A DNA stretch of 64,000 nt, taken from the sequence record OR757434.1; one strand, written 5' to 3'. How positions within the stretch are numbered: the first letter of the stretch is position 1; every line of letters starts with the position of its first letter. Below are positions 33,686-50,291 of this stretch, in pieces. The notes beneath the pieces were generated by a model. The model did no database searches and was not told the DNA's origin. It worked only from the letters and a program-made list of their open reading frames with translations. The stretch is from Escherichia phage vB-EcoP-XT18. Position numbers and translations under genes: made by a program.

Positions 33686-35227
33686 TTAGTAGCTCTGATT
33701 CCATCTGCTTACGTTTGCCTCATACAAAGAAGCGCTTCCGTAGCTAACATCATGCTTAGAGCGACCACGATGTGTAACAGAGCACGCTGAATAGCGCATT
33801 GCATCCATTAAGTCATCATGTTCTTTAATAATCTTACCAACCTTACGGTGATATCTAGCTTTCTCTTCGAATAGCTTAGCGTTAGCGGCTGTGTTAAAGA
33901 CTTTAAAGCGTCCACTCATCATTCTTTCTCGGATATCTGTGATTCCCGGTTCTACAAAGAAGTTCTTTTTACCATCCATTCCAATTTTGTTGTAGAAGGT
34001 CTCACTCTGTACGTTAACTCCTGCATTCTTATAGAATTGAGCAACAGATGAGCCACTACCTTTCTCAGTATTGTCCGCATCATGCGGTAGGATGACAGGA
34101 ATCCACTGACCACGACCATTAATAGCTGGAGCATGATACACTGGAGTAAAGCCACCTTCTTTATATGAGTCGTAAACATAGATAGTATCCGTGTTTGCAT
34201 CGTAAGCTGTCCAAACAGCAGCAGTTGGGTGATCAATACCAATATCAATTGCACAGACACGTTTCCACGTATCAGGAATTTCGAATGGTTCACATTTAAT
34301 TGTGTCATCCGATACATCATATATCAAACCACTTCCTAACAATGGCATACCTTTTGAACGCATCTCTAACTGCCACGCTGGAATACCTTCAGTCATATCT
34401 TTTATATCTTGGTCAGTGATGTGTCCACCTAGGTCTGCATGAGCATCCCACCAAGAAGCATTCTGGAAATACAGAGAACCTGTGTTCTCATCTCCTTCAC
34501 CTTTCATAAATTTATCTACCAGTTCAGTTAAACCGTTCTCTGGTGTAGCTGTAATTGTAACTAGACCTTTAGTTGTGAGTGTACGTGTGACGCACTGTGC
34601 GAATATAGCCATAGACTCGTATGGATCTTCTTCGTCTAACCAAATGTAGTCAACTGTTGCACCCATCAATGTGTGTTCACCCTGTTGGGTTGAACGGAAT
34701 TCTAATGTACTTAAACCGTCAAACTCTCCTCTCTCATTTTGATGTTTGATTTGTACGATTTGAAGTTTGTTACCATCTCGTTCTATCGTATCAATGACGA
34801 TAGCATCACGAGGAATGACACCTGTCCCTAATAAATTTGTATCCTTTCCGATAGGTGTACCAAACAATTCCTTTTGCAATACTTTCCTTGTGGAATCCCC
34901 TGTAATACCAACTGCCCATGCTAAGATAGGTCTTTTAAATTTATATCCTGTCCACCAAGTTGGGTAGCGACCTGTGACATGACAAGCAAACTCGTATGCC
35001 TCGCTATAAGATTTACCAACACGGTTCGCTGCACACAAGAATCTAAAGCGATGCTTCAATCCTGCTGCATAAAATTTCTTTTGGAAGTCATACGCCTTGA
35101 AAGACAAAATCTTATTATACTTCCTCCATTGGTCACGCTCTTTCAACATATTCAATAGTGCTTTCTTTTCGTCTACACTAAGGTTGTTACCAGTTAGAGC
35201 TTCATAAATTTGTTTATCTAATGACAT
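33686..35227 (-). CDS. terminase large subunit
   Basis: Walker A-like CAANRVGKS near N-terminus, C-terminal nuclease-like acidic residues, 513 aa, upstream of portal. Confidence 0.7.
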   Translation of the reverse strand: MSLDKQIYEALTGNNLSVDEKKALLNMLKERDQWRKYNKILSFKAYDFQKKFYAAGLKHRFRFLCAANRVGKSYSEAYEFACHVTGRYPTWWTGYKFKRPILAWAVGITGDSTRKVLQKELFGTPIGKDTNLLGTGVIPRDAIVIDTIERDGNKLQIVQIKHQNERGEFDGLSTLEFRSTQQGEHTLMGATVDYIWLDEEDPYESMAIFAQCVTRTLTTKGLVTITATPENGLTELVDKFMKGEGDENTGSLYFQNASWWDAHADLGGHITDQDIKDMTEGIPAWQLEMRSKGMPLLGSGLIYDVSDDTIKCEPFEIPDTWKRVCAIDIGIDHPTAAVWTAYDANTDTIYVYDSYKEGGFTPVYHAPAINGRGQWIPVILPHDADNTEKGSGSSVAQFYKNAGVNVQSETFYNKIGMDGKKNFFVEPGITDIRERMMSGRFKVFNTAANAKLFEEKARYHRKVGKIIKEHDDLMDAMRYSACSVTHRGRSKHDVSYGSASLYEANVSRWNQSY

Positions 35228-35388: not shown

Positions 35389-35862
35389 TTAACTCTCGTC
35401 CGCTTCCTCCCCCTTTTCAGCGTCCTCAGAGTTGTCTTCTTCTGGAGGCATAACGTCGATACCAAGTGCTCCAGTCAAGAAGTCCTTGATTTGTGCATTC
35501 AATGATTCTTCGTTAATTACATTCTCTTCCTCAATCTTAACTTCAACAGAGGCCGCCTTAGGATATACCAGATCTGCAACTTTTGATGCAGCCTTGAATC
35601 TAAGATCAGGTGGAATATTAGGATCTTCGTAAATTTGAATTAACACTTCATCAGGAGACAAATGACTTGCAGCAACACGGTCCAACATTAATTGTGTCAG
35701 TTTACCTCTACTACCTCTGGGTCGTCCGAATTTATTTCCCTTTTGAAACTTCCCATTGCTTGGGTTCATACCACGGCCTTCAAGTTCTTCCGTTACTCCG
35801 GGTAATCTTCCTGTAATCTCAGCTACCTGTGCAGGTGTGAGTTCTCCGTTTTCTCCAAACAT
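35389..35862 (-). CDS. terminase small subunit (putative)
   Basis: 157 aa, basic N-terminal segment and acidic C-terminus, immediately upstream of large terminase. Confidence 0.4.
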   Translation of the reverse strand: MFGENGELTPAQVAEITGRLPGVTEELEGRGMNPSNGKFQKGNKFGRPRGSRGKLTQLMLDRVAASHLSPDEVLIQIYEDPNIPPDLRFKAASKVADLVYPKAASVEVKIEEENVINEESLNAQIKDFLTGALGIDVMPPEEDNSEDAEKGEEADES

Positions 35863-35918: not shown

Positions 35919-36551
35919 TTACTTACAATCACCAACGGACAGGTTAAACATCTTACCTAAAGTAACTATCTCACCCTCCCACGGAAGTTCTACACCCTTC
36001 TCTTCCTCTAAAAGAATAGAGCCGTCGACCAAAAATTTTTCGTAGTCTCGCAGTGCGTCGTCTACTAACTCACTCTTGTGAATCCACGTAATTGTTTCTG
36101 TACCATCTTCTTCGATTCGAACATCACGATGCCATTCATCTTTAGAGGTAATGTAATCATGGAGCATTTCATATTCAGCTTCTTCAATCATCTCAATCAT
36201 TGCACGAGCATAGTCAGGAAGGTGATCATGTTTAGTAGATTCATATTCAACTACTTCCAGAGTAGATGGTTGTGTTTTAGTTTTAGAGTTAGGGCGAGTA
36301 GTATGAATCAAATCTAACATGTTTTTGTTCTCCGTAATATTTGGTTTAAGAATACTTCCACTATACAAATCTTGTACAGCCAGTCCTGAGATGTTTCCCA
36401 TAGTTTCTAAATGTTGTAAGCTACAACCAGAGCGACATAGCTGTGAATTATACTCGTTAAGGTCCATCGCTTGGGTGTGGAAAGGAGAGCCAGAAGGGAA
36501 ACTACCTCCATAAATACCTTCCATGTTACGTGCGATTATTTGATTATTCAT
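35919..36551 (-). CDS. hypothetical protein
   Basis: First sizeable gene of leftward operon; no motif recognised. Confidence 0.3.
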   Translation of the reverse strand: MNNQIIARNMEGIYGGSFPSGSPFHTQAMDLNEYNSQLCRSGCSLQHLETMGNISGLAVQDLYSGSILKPNITENKNMLDLIHTTRPNSKTKTQPSTLEVVEYESTKHDHLPDYARAMIEMIEEAEYEMLHDYITSKDEWHRDVRIEEDGTETITWIHKSELVDDALRDYEKFLVDGSILLEEEKGVELPWEGEIVTLGKMFNLSVGDCK

Positions 36552-36798
36552 CTGTCTCTCCCTTGCTGTAATCTTTATACGTTTCTACTTTGTAAGTGCA
36601 GAATGCTCTAAAGAAGAGCCAACCTAAGCTACTCACATCAATGGTAATATCGAAATCTGTTTCATCATCTAGGTCAACAAGACGACCTAAGCATGTAGCT
36701 TCCATCCCATCTTCAGAGTCACTATTGACTACGAAAGCGTATGTCTCCGTTCTGAACCGAGGCACTATCTCTGATAAAAAGTCTAATACTAAATTCAT
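36544..36798 (-). CDS. hypothetical small acidic protein
   Basis: ORF overlapping start of downstream gene. Confidence 0.3.
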   Translation of the reverse strand: MNLVLDFLSEIVPRFRTETYAFVVNSDSEDGMEATCLGRLVDLDDETDFDITIDVSSLGWLFFRAFCTYKVETYKDYSKGETDE

Positions 36799-36849
36799 AA
36801 CTCTTCTCCTCTGAATAAGAGTATAAAGGGCTAGTCATATCTAACCCGT

Positions 36850-36950
36850 AAAGGCCACGTCATCAAAGATGACTACCTCATACTAACAACCCGTGTACTC
36901 TGAAGTAAAGGGCATGTCATAAAGGCACCCTCATGTTAAGGCCATGTCAT
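36850..36950. repeat. three direct repeats AAGG(C/G)CA(C/T)GTCAT
   Basis: aaggccacgtcat, aagggcatgtcat, aaggccatgtcat within about 100 bp in the divergent control region. Confidence 0.6.
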
Positions 36951-37344
36951 TAGTCATACTTGATACATCTTGCTATAGAGAAGCAGATGAATAAACAGAA
37001 GACTATTACTAACCAAAAGATTATTTCCATTAAGACCTATCCACCCACGTACTGAATCTCAACTTACCACATTCCTTACACTTCCATGTTGATAGGTAGA
37101 GACCGTGTATTCTTTCATCCCCGTAAGCTTTACGAAGAAGGTAGTAATTGTGCTTACACTTCATCCGTCTAAATACTTTAATTAGATTCATTAAGTTCTC
37201 TCTTAAGCTTATATATAACAGTTCAAAATTCTGATTTGACCGAGTGGGGCTAGGCCCTCTGCGGCGAATTGTTAAAAAGGGGGAGTCCTCAAATAAAAAA
37301 TGGTTATTGGCAATGCCTTTACACCTTCTTCCACGTTCCAACCT

Positions 37345-37750
37345 TTCCCCGTGCCTACTCCCCGTAATTATTCCCCCGTGTATACTACCCAATACATTAC
37401 CTACCCGTTTATTTAGTTCCCCTTTACTGAATGGATGAAAGGCTAGCACTGTATAGGCCAACTGATTAGTCTGCTAATAATGCCATTAATGATGGTCACC
37501 ACTCCCCATAGTTTGAGTGTAAATAGTTTCAATAGTGATTGTTATGAGTGCAATAATGATGTATGTATTAATTAAGTGGATGATTGTGTTTCTTTTAATA
37601 ATTTCTTTTAATTACTTTCTTTTTCAGCGTGCATGAGCGTAGCGAATGGTCTTTGATGTTTGAGTTATACAATTATTTAAGTGGTATATTATTACCGCAC
37701 TATCTGGCAATGTTCCCCCGTGGTCTGTCCTGCGGTTGTATGTTCCCCGT
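37345..37750. repeat. iteron-like direct repeats TYCCCCGT (at least 6 copies)
   Basis: tttccccgtg, ctccccgtaa, ttcccccgtg, tacccgttt, gttcccccgtg, gttccccgtcc; three copies spaced 13-14 bp. Confidence 0.55.
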
Positions 37751-38054
37751 CCTATAGAGATAGTAGAAATATTTTACCCGTAGGACTTGCTTTCTTTATT
37801 AAGAAGTAGTAAATTGTATTCATCGAAGCGAAGCAGTGATGCAAAGTAGCTAGATGGTAGTAAGCTCCATGAAGGATAATCGTCCTAAGTAGTGGAGAAT
37901 GTTTAAAGATAAGGACTCTGCGATTGACTGGTGAAAGCTGGAACACTATCGAGTCAGTGAAGAGGCCAACTGAGCAATGGCCCTACGTATAAAAGAGAAA
38001 TACGTGCTATCTTGTGAAACATGAAACCAAATACACATCAATGAGGATTCACAA

Positions 38055-38546
38055 ATGGCTAAGGTAATGCAGGTAGTTAATCTGGCAAGCTATGTACTGG
38101 TTGCCGCGATCGGTGTTAGTGCACTGGTAACATCTCTTTCTGATAAGGCTATCGCTAGTCCAGCTCCTGCAACTAATGCCGCTGATGTTTTCGCTAGTTC
38201 CATTAATAAAGGTTGGATGATTTGCAACGGTGCGGATAGTGACGGCAATACCATCGCGTTAAAGATGAAATTTAGTAACGTAACAAATGAAGGCGTTCTC
38301 TTTCAATCTAAGACGTTGGACGGTCAGCCTAACAGTGATCTGGTACTCAAGCGTGCTGATAATGATGCGGATATGGTGACGTTCGGCACTGTACAACGTT
38401 ATGAAGACGTTAAAGCTGTTACCAATCTTGTGAGCTACGGTCCGGTCAATGAGTCGATGATTGCTACCACTGTTTACAATAACGCTGATAATGCTGTTTA
38501 CACTGTTCACGTTAATCTAGCCAACTGCATCAAGGCCAGTAAATAA
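38055..38546 (+). CDS. secreted/membrane-anchored early protein
   Basis: N-terminal hydrophobic signal-like segment; first gene of rightward early operon. Confidence 0.4.
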   Translation: MAKVMQVVNLASYVLVAAIGVSALVTSLSDKAIASPAPATNAADVFASSINKGWMICNGADSDGNTIALKMKFSNVTNEGVLFQSKTLDGQPNSDLVLKRADNDADMVTFGTVQRYEDVKAVTNLVSYGPVNESMIATTVYNNADNAVYTVHVNLANCIKASK

Positions 38547-38572
38547 ATAACCTATTCTTGGGAGTGTAAAAC

Positions 38573-38824
38573 ATGGCTATCAAAGAAGTTAAATTATCTA
38601 GCGGGTTTTCTTGTTTTGTTTGTGATACTTTTATTGCGTTCAGCTTGAAAGAAGATGATGTGATAATCCCTGCCGTTGCTTTTTGTTCCATGAGTTTTAA
38701 CGAGGCCAAAAAATGGCTTCAATTGGTGCGCATTGATATTAATCGCGATGACTTCCGATCAATCTATGTTGACGGTGATTTGTCGCTTTCTGGTCTTCTT
38801 GAGATTGATTTGCCTAAATGGTGA
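38573..38824 (+). CDS. hypothetical small protein
   Basis: ORF in compact operon. Confidence 0.3.
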   Translation: MAIKEVKLSSGFSCFVCDTFIAFSLKEDDVIIPAVAFCSMSFNEAKKWLQLVRIDINRDDFRSIYVDGDLSLSGLLEIDLPKW

Positions 38825-38835
38825 GGGATTGATTC

Positions 38836-39045
38836 ATGGTCAATGGCGTTGTTGTTAATGATAGCGTAACTATCTTTGATAATGTTGTGTCAGTTGCAAG
38901 TAGTCGCGGTGAAAGTCGTGTACCGCTTGCCATATTGTGCAACCTTTCGGAATTTAGCGCACGAATTACGGTTGCTTATTTAGGCGGCACTTTATCCGGC
39001 CCTGAATATGTATCTATGCTCAAATACAATAAGGAGTGGTCTTAA
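38836..39045 (+). CDS. hypothetical small protein
   Basis: ORF in compact operon. Confidence 0.3.
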   Translation: MVNGVVVNDSVTIFDNVVSVASSRGESRVPLAILCNLSEFSARITVAYLGGTLSGPEYVSMLKYNKEWS

Positions 39046-48182: not shown

Positions 48183-48257
48183 GTCCCTATAGTTAAAAGG
48201 ATATAACAGATTTCTTCTAAAAATCCATTCTAGGTTCGAGTCCTAGTGGGGACGCCA
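48183..48257 (+). tRNA. tRNA-Arg (anticodon UCU), CCA encoded
   Basis: Hand-folded cloverleaf: acceptor GTCCCTA/TGGGGAC (one G-U), U8, D-stem GTTA/TAAC, anticodon stem GATTT/AAATC with loop CTTCTAA (U33, TCT), T-arm CTAGG-TTCGAGT-CCTAG, discriminator G, CCA. Confidence 0.75.
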
Positions 48258-49979: not shown

Positions 49980-50291
49980 ATGAAAGCTCGAAGAACTATA
50001 TGGACTCCGATGCAGATTGAAAATCTTCGGAGACTAATCAAAGAGTACTCTGTTCAAGAGGTTGCTCAGATTATGAATGTAACGGAGAATGCAGTTAATA
50101 CAGCTTGCACTAAGTTTGGTATATCAAGAGCTGCAATCCGAGTCAAGTGGTCTAAAGAAGAAGACCAGTTCCTTATCCGTAATGCTGGGTTCATGTCTAT
50201 TCAGAGAATGGCTGACATGCTCGGTAGAAGCTATGCTGCTGTACAGAACAGGGCATGTATGCACCTTAACATTAGCCTTAAACTTAAATAG
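49980..50291 (+). CDS. small HTH DNA-binding protein (putative transcription regulator)
   Basis: Internal ATG with GGAGG RBS in track ORF 49878..50291; HTH-like VQEVAQIMNVTENAVNTACTKFGIS. Confidence 0.4.
   Translation: MKARRTIWTPMQIENLRRLIKEYSVQEVAQIMNVTENAVNTACTKFGISRAAIRVKWSKEEDQFLIRNAGFMSIQRMADMLGRSYAAVQNRACMHLNISLKLK

Follow-up and report, generated by a model that had tools for sequence, protein, structure and literature searches.

What is the function of the short direct repeats that crowd the DNA between the leftward and the rightward genes of Escherichia phage vB-EcoP-XT18? The repeats lie at positions 36,800 to 38,054 of a 64,000-nucleotide stretch of this phage (sequence record OR757434.1; hereafter, the window is this whole stretch), where a sequence-only reading had seen a divergent control region carrying two classes of iteron-like repeats, AAGGSCAYGTCAT (class 1) and TYCCCCGT (class 2). 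Judged by the mapped ends of its relatives, the region is the concatemer junction of a Kuravirus genome in a circularly permuted assembly, and the class-2 repeats belong to an array of short, identically oriented motifs that runs across this junction. We propose that the array consists of cis-elements for concatemer maturation and packaging, analogous to the CCTAAAG arrays of T7 and to lambda cosB, and we put the probability of this proposal at about one half.

Where are the physical ends of this genome? The 3 kb around the repeats match 80 GenBank phage records, nearly all of them Escherichia or Shigella Kuravirus (phiEco32-like, Gordonclarkvirinae), and the nearest matches of the window are XT32 and XT73 at ~98% identity; a more sensitive search with 36800-38054 as the sole query matched 101 records. 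Records that were opened at a physical end start at query position 645, which is window position 37444. The homologue of 37444 is base 1 of the Paul, YF01, IMEP8, WFI101126 and CHD5UKE1 records and base 2 of KM01; the alignment to 4E8 starts only at record base 31, within an annotated terminal repeat of 206 bp. The direct terminal repeat (DTR) annotated at the same place is 193 bp long in both Paul and YF01, and bases 1-193 of phiEco32 are identical to its last 193. The Kuravirus DTR itself is already known: a length of 193 bp has been determined experimentally for phiEco32, for SU10 (by read drop-off), for Paul (by PhageTerm) and for YF01 (by full-length nanopore reads), the SU10 paper noted one internal repeat in it (CCCTTTTTTA), and the YF01 paper described a block that is conserved at about positions 130-170 of the DTR. 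When the DTR and its flanks are aligned, window positions 37252-37444 are 79% identical to the phiEco32 DTR and both boundaries align:

37252..37444, minus strand: DTR, 193 bp; the left virion end reads leftward from 37444 (AGCCTTTC...), placed by homology with phiEco32, Paul, YF01 and 4E8 and by the alignments.

The DTR sequence is present once in the 64-kb window, and by homology to the mapped ends 37252-37444 is a single collapsed copy of the 193-bp DTR. Since the sequence occurs only once and the ends of the relatives are mapped, the repeats sit on the concatemer junction. Everything left of 37444 belongs to the left genome end, and the right-end early region begins at 37445. As the junction of physical ends, the region has two halves that lie at opposite ends of the virion DNA, where they would form no single contiguous control region.

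What, then, runs across the junction? Of TYCCCCGT, for which six or more copies had been claimed, only four exact copies exist (37345, 37372, 37714 and 37743; 1.3 expected, and 6 of 100 shuffles reach four), and it is the degenerate core that recurs: CCCCGT is found six times and CCCGT ten times on the plus strand between 36845 and 37777, and neither occurs there on the minus strand. The CCCGT copies start at 36845, 36890, 37120, 37348, 37361, 37375, 37404, 37717, 37746 and 37777. CCCGT is the most over-represented k-mer of 36800-37800 (10 copies, 0.26 expected), and in a scan statistic none of 300 dinucleotide shuffles reached the observed five CCCCGT or seven CCCGT within 450 bp. The array is ~930 bp long and falls into three zones, with three copies in the right-unique flank, four in the DTR and three in the left-unique flank. 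Its conserved core is 5-7 bp, and its spacings are 13, 14, 29, 29, 31 and 45 bp; the 13-14 bp reported for three class-2 copies is correct, and that triple lies inside the DTR.

37717..37781, plus strand: right-unique array, three CCCGT copies at 37717, 37746 and 37777, with intervals of 29 and 31 bp, lying at +273 to +333 relative to the terminus.
37348..37408, plus strand: four CCCGT copies inside the DTR, at 37348, 37361, 37375 and 37404, the last 41 bp from the terminus.
36845..36894, plus strand: two left-unique CCCGT copies, at 36845 and 36890, interleaved with class-1 repeats in a composite unit CCCGT-AAAGGSNNNNTCAT.

One further CCCCGT, at 37119, lies within the homologue of gene 1.

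How could the two ends of the DTR be chosen? Each boundary falls within the same hexamer, GGCT/AG, in which the slash marks the cut:

37441..37446, plus strand: GGCT/AG at the terminus, cut between 37444 and 37445.
37248..37253, plus strand: GGCT/AG at the inner DTR boundary, cut between 37251 and 37252.

We compared the locus in 15 phages that span at least three lineages (the window, phiEco32, Paul, 4E8, YF01, SDYTW1, MN03, PE006, SGF2, NJ01, Bas91, Bas92, Bas89, Bas88 and EK010). The inner boundary is CT/AG in all 15, usually as GGCT/AG. The terminus boundary was readable in 13 of them (the Paul, YF01 and 4E8 loci end at the terminus) and is CT/AG in ten; the exceptions are MN03 (CC/AG), Bas91 (CT/AT) and EK010, whose junction is distorted by a 136-bp duplication that was taken out by hand before comparison. 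In the EK010 record (L044+L045, LC553734) this duplication extends across the record ends and is apparently a part of the DTR left in a linear assembly. GGCTAG occurs 15 times in the window, so the hexamer alone is insufficient for specificity and extra recognition is needed. The use of one core at both DTR ends has precedents: in LUZ24 the core GGGGAATATCCC is common to both DTR boundaries, and in phage tf the palindromic core GATATCcc has been proposed as the terminase core site at the DTR boundaries (PMC3517423). The LUZ24 and tf boundaries obey the same principle as the CT/AG pair.

The overall layout is the same in 15 of 15 phages. Four same-strand copies of CCC(G/A)T occupy the terminus-proximal half of the DTR in 14 of the phages, and 4E8 has six. 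The last DTR copy lies 41 bp from the terminus in every one of the 15, across DTR lengths of 193, 205/206 and about 249 bp (the last an inferred value). Repeats at a constrained distance from the putative cut site, as in sites of the cosB/pac type, are thus found in all 15 phages. The terminal 75 bp of the DTR has no indels save one 1-bp gap, and large indels occur in the remaining DTR. Of the 13 phages that reach past the terminus, 12 have three to five copies in the right-unique zone, within about +250 to +415 and mostly 27-31 bp apart; Bas92 has only two, one of which is CCCAT. The right-unique copies shift in position among phages and retain their motif. On the left-unique side each phage has two to six copies, interleaved with degenerate class-1 units. 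The phiEco32 array matches that of the window in positions and spacing, with near-identical motif sequences, the DTR copies of Bas89 and 4E8 have moved but are retained, and in the Suseptimavirus-like phages Bas88 and EK010 most copies are CCCAT, not CCCGT, in all three zones. Footprinting within Kuravirus (motif columns 0.92, other non-coding columns 0.78) is weakly informative because the whole DTR is 0.9 conserved, and the divergent lineages are decisive instead.

These comparisons establish, at the level of sequence, the identity of the DTR and its boundaries (by homology) and the enrichment, conservation and layout of the array. The CCCCGT/CCCGT copies are non-random, strand-uniform and conserved far beyond their flanks, as would be expected of protein-binding sites. 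In the literature searched we found no description of the CCCGT array, of its 41-bp offset or of the paired CT/AG boundaries.

How far does the array extend beyond these phages? More distant relatives (the loci L048, L049, L050 and L052) were reached via homologues of the putative small terminase (TerS). L052, whose TerS is 50% identical and whose junction region has no blastn similarity to that of the window, has 13 copies of ACGGG in the 800 bp that precede TerS, in the same relative orientation (p about 3e-12), and five of these copies read ACGGGGA. L048 and L049 have 4-6 motif copies, and L050 has mainly TAGGG (six copies), upstream of a conserved GAGGACTCCCCCTTTT block that is also present in the Kuravirus DTR. 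Throughout this phage group a short G/C-rich array at the junction is thus a deep feature that evolves and yet persists. A scan of IMG/VR with a conserved DTR 15-mer gave mostly chance matches and otherwise only known Kuravirus genomes. Salmonella phage 7-11 was considered as an outgroup and set aside, as its own array could not be placed against its termini. That array (L041:907-990) consists of four copies of YGTRTGGATAR, a motif similar to a DnaA box (TGTGGATAA), at 17-29 bp spacing in a 1.7-kb non-coding junction region, and the same phage has a 19-nt direct repeat, with ACTAGT in it, at positions 1031 and 1173. At the LUZ24 junction (L053/L054, ~380-690 of the joined sequence), about six copies of YCTATAGGT/CATAGG lie in the right-unique flank; in this clade of large terminases (TerL), a short DTR may therefore generally have a motif array next to it.

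Which factor would read the array, and to what end? The CCCCGT/CCCGT copies would be short protein-binding sites, all on the same strand, that together make up a single array reaching from the right-unique flank through the DTR into the left-unique flank. We propose that a phage factor, most likely a TerS of the PaP3 type, binds this array, and that the bound factor positions TerL to cut at the two CT/AG sites bounding the DTR, of which the nearer is separated from the last motif copy by exactly 41 bp. From 37444, packaging would run to the left, across the DTR copies. This direction is argued from general phage biology: the early promoters are at the right end, and if the right end enters the cell first, it is packaged last, which places the start at 37444. 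With leftward packaging from 37444, the DTR copies would sit where lambda places cosB. The two terminase genes lie to the left of the junction:

35389..35862, minus strand: putative TerS, candidate trans-factor, from profile matches; the YF01 homologue is annotated as a putative TerS.
33686..35227, minus strand: TerL, P22/PaP3-like by tblastn.

In tblastn comparisons TerL is 99% identical to that of phiEco32, 39% to those of the PaP3-group phages and 32% to that of P22. A profile built from 38 TerS homologues has as its two best PDB matches the TerS proteins of NV1 (7JOQ, E 0.003) and PaP3 (6W7T, E 0.053), and the PaP3 protein binds DNA sequence-specifically (PMC7672466). In Pfam the putative TerS has only a sub-threshold match to DUF5681; its predicted helical core comprises residues 54-99. 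Its gene lies 1.4 kb from the array. As side observations on the terminase and portal genes of distant relatives, in L049:7137-10192 and L052:6240-8083 the portal gene is interrupted by an open reading frame for a GIY-YIG endonuclease in one and TerL is called as two open reading frames in the other, and Proteus phage 3H10_20 has an HNH gene within TerL.

A wider proposal can be made, although we hold it with somewhat less than even confidence: that the CCCRT array and the paired CT/AG sites together constitute the previously undefined packaging-recognition and cleavage signal of the phiEco32-like phages (Gordonclarkvirinae and related), that one trans-factor reads both sides of the junction, and that its specificity has drifted in concert across the zones, from CCCCGT in Kuravirus and L052 to CCCAT in the Suseptimavirus-like phages and a TAGGG type in L050.

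Several observations weigh against assigning the array to packaging. The termini of the window itself are placed by homology, and we infer the binding factor and the packaging role of the array, throughout Kuravirus, from its sequence. The TerS assignment comes from weak profile matches, and a fold search was not significant (AlphaFold model pLDDT 69; with Foldseek against the PDB, PaP3 TerS ranked 7 with E 2.5). The TerS proteins of the CCCGT lineages share 91-98% identity with those of the CCCAT lineages, which leaves no visible covariation of TerS and motif. In the left-unique zone the G/A state varies within Kuravirus while the DTR copies stay G, and some left-unique motif matches fall in coding sequence; the covariation of the three zones consequently comes down to essentially one lineage split. 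An array of ~930 bp exceeds typical TerS footprints. The right-unique copies lie just downstream of a promoter-like element, which would also fit a transcriptional role. Finally, the function of the terminal arrays of T7 is, to our knowledge, not firmly established.

Could the repeats instead be operators? Promoter-like elements do lie around the junction:

37208..37251, minus strand: most conserved non-coding block, adjoining the DTR on the left-unique side; column identity 0.94-0.97.
37577..37585, plus strand: extended -10-like TGgATGATT, candidate promoter P1 for rightward early transcription, seen in the sequence and conserved among the aligned relatives.
37586..37625, plus strand: T-rich variable tract with unit TTTCTTTTAAT, between P1 and P2, which expands and contracts in NJ01 and Bas92.
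37682..37690, plus strand: extended -10-like TGgTATATT, candidate P2, unchanged or almost unchanged in the Kuravirus relatives and still discernible in Bas89 and Bas88.

The block at 37208-37251 is a candidate promoter for genes 1-5 and/or a candidate part of cut-site recognition; its homologue in SU10 is listed in that paper's S2 table as a potential sigma-70 promoter for coding sequence (CDS) 1, and it is the only part still alignable in L048-L050. In SDYTW1 and NJ01 (L006, L011), a 42-bp insertion at window ~37218 gives a second copy of the promoter-like GAGTTTAAAAT... block that lies between gene 1 and the DTR. Transcription from P1 would start near 37592 and that from P2 near 37697, the latter about 20 bp upstream of the right-unique array, and the T-rich tract of TTTCTTTTAAT-like units may be promoter-upstream curved DNA. 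A scan for canonical sigma-70 promoters (TTGACA/TATAAT) found none in 36800-38054 and one match overall, elsewhere, against 5.8 expected, so that our promoter assignments draw on extended -10-like elements and homology only. In the phiEco32-like family the early promoters are at the right genome end. The SU10/phiEco32 consensus early promoter upstream of the last gene is part of a leader allele that is absent from the window: this promoter, TTGACA-N17-TATATA, goes with the allele encoding a 290-aa protein and is missing from the window, MN03 and SDYTW1. Two alleles of the right-end leader and first early gene occur among the relatives over the stretch corresponding to window 37750-38546; the first early protein of the window, MN03 and SDYTW1 has 163 aa and corresponds to no more than the C-terminal half of the 290-aa form (PHROG 36409), and the latter is found in phiEco32, SGF2 and Bas91.

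The proposed divergent control region is supported in that the genes diverge, that two conserved extended -10-like elements point right and that a conserved block lies upstream of the leftward gene 1; it overlooked that the region is the junction of two physical ends. Nor is the region purely intergenic, since the 53-aa gene 1 homologue lies inside it, and its nearest neighbours on the left are small left-end genes, not the structural operon proper; the SU10 paper classed CDS 1-3 as early.

37030..37191, minus strand: gene 1 homologue, 53 aa (PHROG 7696, E 3e-16); a 162-nt CDS is annotated here in 4E8, Bas89 and NJ01.
36544-36798, leftward of the DTR: gp4 homologue.
35919-36551, leftward of the DTR: gp5 homologue.
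38055-38546: first rightward gene.

The gene 1 product has CxH...CxxC residues that resemble a zinc ribbon, as read from the sequence; it has no family match to a zinc ribbon.

On the operator explanation, the repeats would bind a phage transcription regulator that controls both outward-directed early promoter sets, for example the tandem helix-turn-helix (HTH) protein encoded at 49980-50291. The product has two HTH motifs and matches a PHROG 'transcriptional regulator' family, and from the extended -10 element at 37682-37690 it is about 20 bp downstream to the first of the right-unique copies. This HTH protein, which the sequence-only reading had put forward as a binder, is only 63% identical in phiEco32 though the arrays are nearly identical, and this is mild evidence against it. 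In favour of the operator explanation, a gp36-promoter-like sequence, TAATGTATT, stands among the DTR copies (37391-37399, minus strand), one mismatch from the consensus tAATGTAtA of the phage sigma factor gp36, and phiEco32 and Bas92 keep matches of 8/9 at this place, but at different positions. Yet one-mismatch matches number 16 in the window where about 20 are expected by chance, so that TAATGTATT alone is not significant; the gp36 promoters known from phiEco32 are at other sites, in front of genes 6, 13, 26, 40, 58 and 68 only, and neither repeat class resembles the gp36 promoter consensus. All copies share a single DNA orientation despite the divergent transcription, the fixed distance to the terminus is left unexplained, and nine sequences of the early leader revealed no RNA covariation or compensatory pairs. 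Other searches for RNA elements were negative as well: Rfam gave no match in 36000-39000 at E<=1, and no tRNA was found in the region. A tRNA-Arg(TCT), the single tRNA typical of phiEco32-like genomes, lies at window 48183-48257. We regard the operator explanation as unlikely for the array as a whole, and an operator role as possible for the right-unique copies.

Equally improbable, in our view, is an iteron-type replication origin, in which the direct repeats would bind a phage initiator next to an AT-rich unwinding region. The repeats are indeed direct, conserved and in one orientation, the T-rich tract at 37586-37625 lies between the DTR and the right-unique array, and in T7, according to its annotation, the secondary-origin promoters phiOL and phiOR adjoin the terminal arrays. 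However, the core is 5-7 bp and not 17-22 bp, the spacing varies irregularly between 13 and 45 bp without regular phasing, and the physical terminus divides the array, whose distance to the cut site is fixed at 41 bp. In its variable length the T-rich tract resembles DNA upstream of promoters. As single-stranded DNA, the DTR is less structured than its shuffles (z +2). None of the six proteins that flank the region matched an initiator-like Pfam or PHROG family. The iteron-like label accordingly fits poorly on an array with a short core, irregular spacing and no adjacent initiator gene that straddles a cut site. Both the operator and the origin explanations are weaker than the assignment of the array to packaging.

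What of the class-1 repeats? Three exact copies of AAGGSCAYGTCAT had been claimed, and three exist (36851, 36908 and 36938), all on the plus strand and absent from the rest of the 64 kb; 0.02 are expected on average and none of 100 shuffles reached three, so that for class 1 as for the CCCGT cluster (0 of 300 shuffles) enrichment over shuffled sequence, the check named beforehand, was borne out. A looser unit, TAAAGGSNNNNTCAY, has four copies (36824, 36849, 36906 and 36920; 0.15 expected), and a fifth class-1 copy, of a TTAAGG type, overlaps 36936-36950. With up to two mismatches allowed, the class-1 pattern showed no window-wide enrichment (6 found, 3.9 expected).

36824..36950, plus strand: class-1 degenerate repeats TAAAGGSNNNNTCAY, five copies at 36824, 36849, 36906, 36920 and 36936.

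In the relatives class 1 occurs in degenerate, variable form only, and the degenerate unit was found in all 15 phages compared. We suggest that the class-1 repeats may extend the same terminal repeat zone into the left-unique side as its fast-evolving part, and that their counterpart in T7 would be the SRL array. That local duplication or slippage produced repeats that are passively inherited and have no dedicated function, an idea most plausible for class 1 only, is the least probable of the explanations: class-1 copy number and sequence do differ between close relatives, part of the class-1 segment cannot be aligned with phiEco32 and its predicted RNA structure is not significant (z -1.1), but the degenerate unit is present in every phage of the set, and CCCGT is retained where the flanking DNA no longer aligns, and its distance from the terminus is kept. 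Class-1 copies were also considered as starts of mini-open reading frames or as pseudo-termini and rejected; they have no ribosome-binding sites, and the copy that contains GGCTAG is not conserved. Two further features of this segment are a palindrome, GTCATCAAAGATGAC, at 36862-36875 within the second class-1 unit, and a hairpin with a T-run at 36847-36828 on the minus strand, in which the first class-1 unit pairs with the CCCGT at 36845 and which could be a weak terminator upstream of gene 4.

Outside T7 and T3, the way in which a terminase selects and duplicates the ends of a short-DTR genome is poorly defined. Here the sequence directly shows the CT/AG cut sites and, at a constant offset of 41 bp, a candidate recognition array, and both are conserved across a subfamily that is used in phage therapy work, so that the recognition problem becomes testable and precisely testable candidate packaging signals are at hand. 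If the wider packaging proposal is true, these phages would offer a sequence-defined model of a P22/PaP3-type terminase that makes short exact terminal repeats. The same features help to set correct genome ends in the many circularly permuted Kuravirus assemblies and mark a region not to be disturbed when these phages are engineered.

Finally, how does the junction compare with known systems? With the iterons of plasmids and phages (P1, lambda ori) it shares clustered direct repeats in non-coding DNA near an AT-rich stretch, but it departs from them in iteron unit length, regular phasing, an adjacent initiator gene and independence from the genome termini. The resemblance to terminase recognition sites is of another kind. 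Lambda cosB contains the gpNu1-binding repeats R3-R2-R1 beside cosN, and SPP1 has pacL and pacR boxes. As in these, several short repeats lie here tens of bp from a cut, on the side of the terminase genes that would be packaged first; there the small terminase binds them. The ends of lambda and SPP1 are cohesive or headful-permuted, whereas a 193-bp DTR needs two cuts, and the array here continues across the cut for about 930 bp in all. The LUZ24-like phages have a related TerL (about 39% identity), a short exact DTR (184-186 bp in theirs) and one short palindrome-containing core at both DTR boundaries; the core is CT/AG here, in contrast to GATATCcc in tf and GGGGAATATCCC in LUZ24, and tf has one 3' 4-nt protruding end where SU10 reads indicate blunt ends.

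The closest overall analogue appears to be T7, whose CCTAAAG heptamers are said to have been described in SRR, the terminal repetition and SRL by Dunn and Studier in 1983. By the count used for CCCGT, T7 has 13 copies of CCTAAAG, all in one orientation, distributed among its right-unique flank, its 160-bp terminal repeat and its left-unique flank. Both systems thus have a motif of 5-7 bp in about 10-13 copies, all in one orientation, spread over a right-unique flank, a short exact DTR and a left-unique flank, and both have early promoters for the host RNA polymerase just inside one end and sequence similarity at the two repeat boundaries. They differ in the motif (CCCCGT here, CCTAAAG in T7), in the terminase, which is unrelated to that of T7 and of the P22/PaP3 type in its TerL, in having no phage RNA polymerase here, and in the location of the early promoters, which are at the right end here and at the left end in T7. 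As neither the motif nor the packaging enzyme is homologous, we regard the resemblance as analogy and not as membership: a similar arrangement of short, uniformly oriented sites across a short exact terminal repeat, seen in two phages with unrelated terminases.

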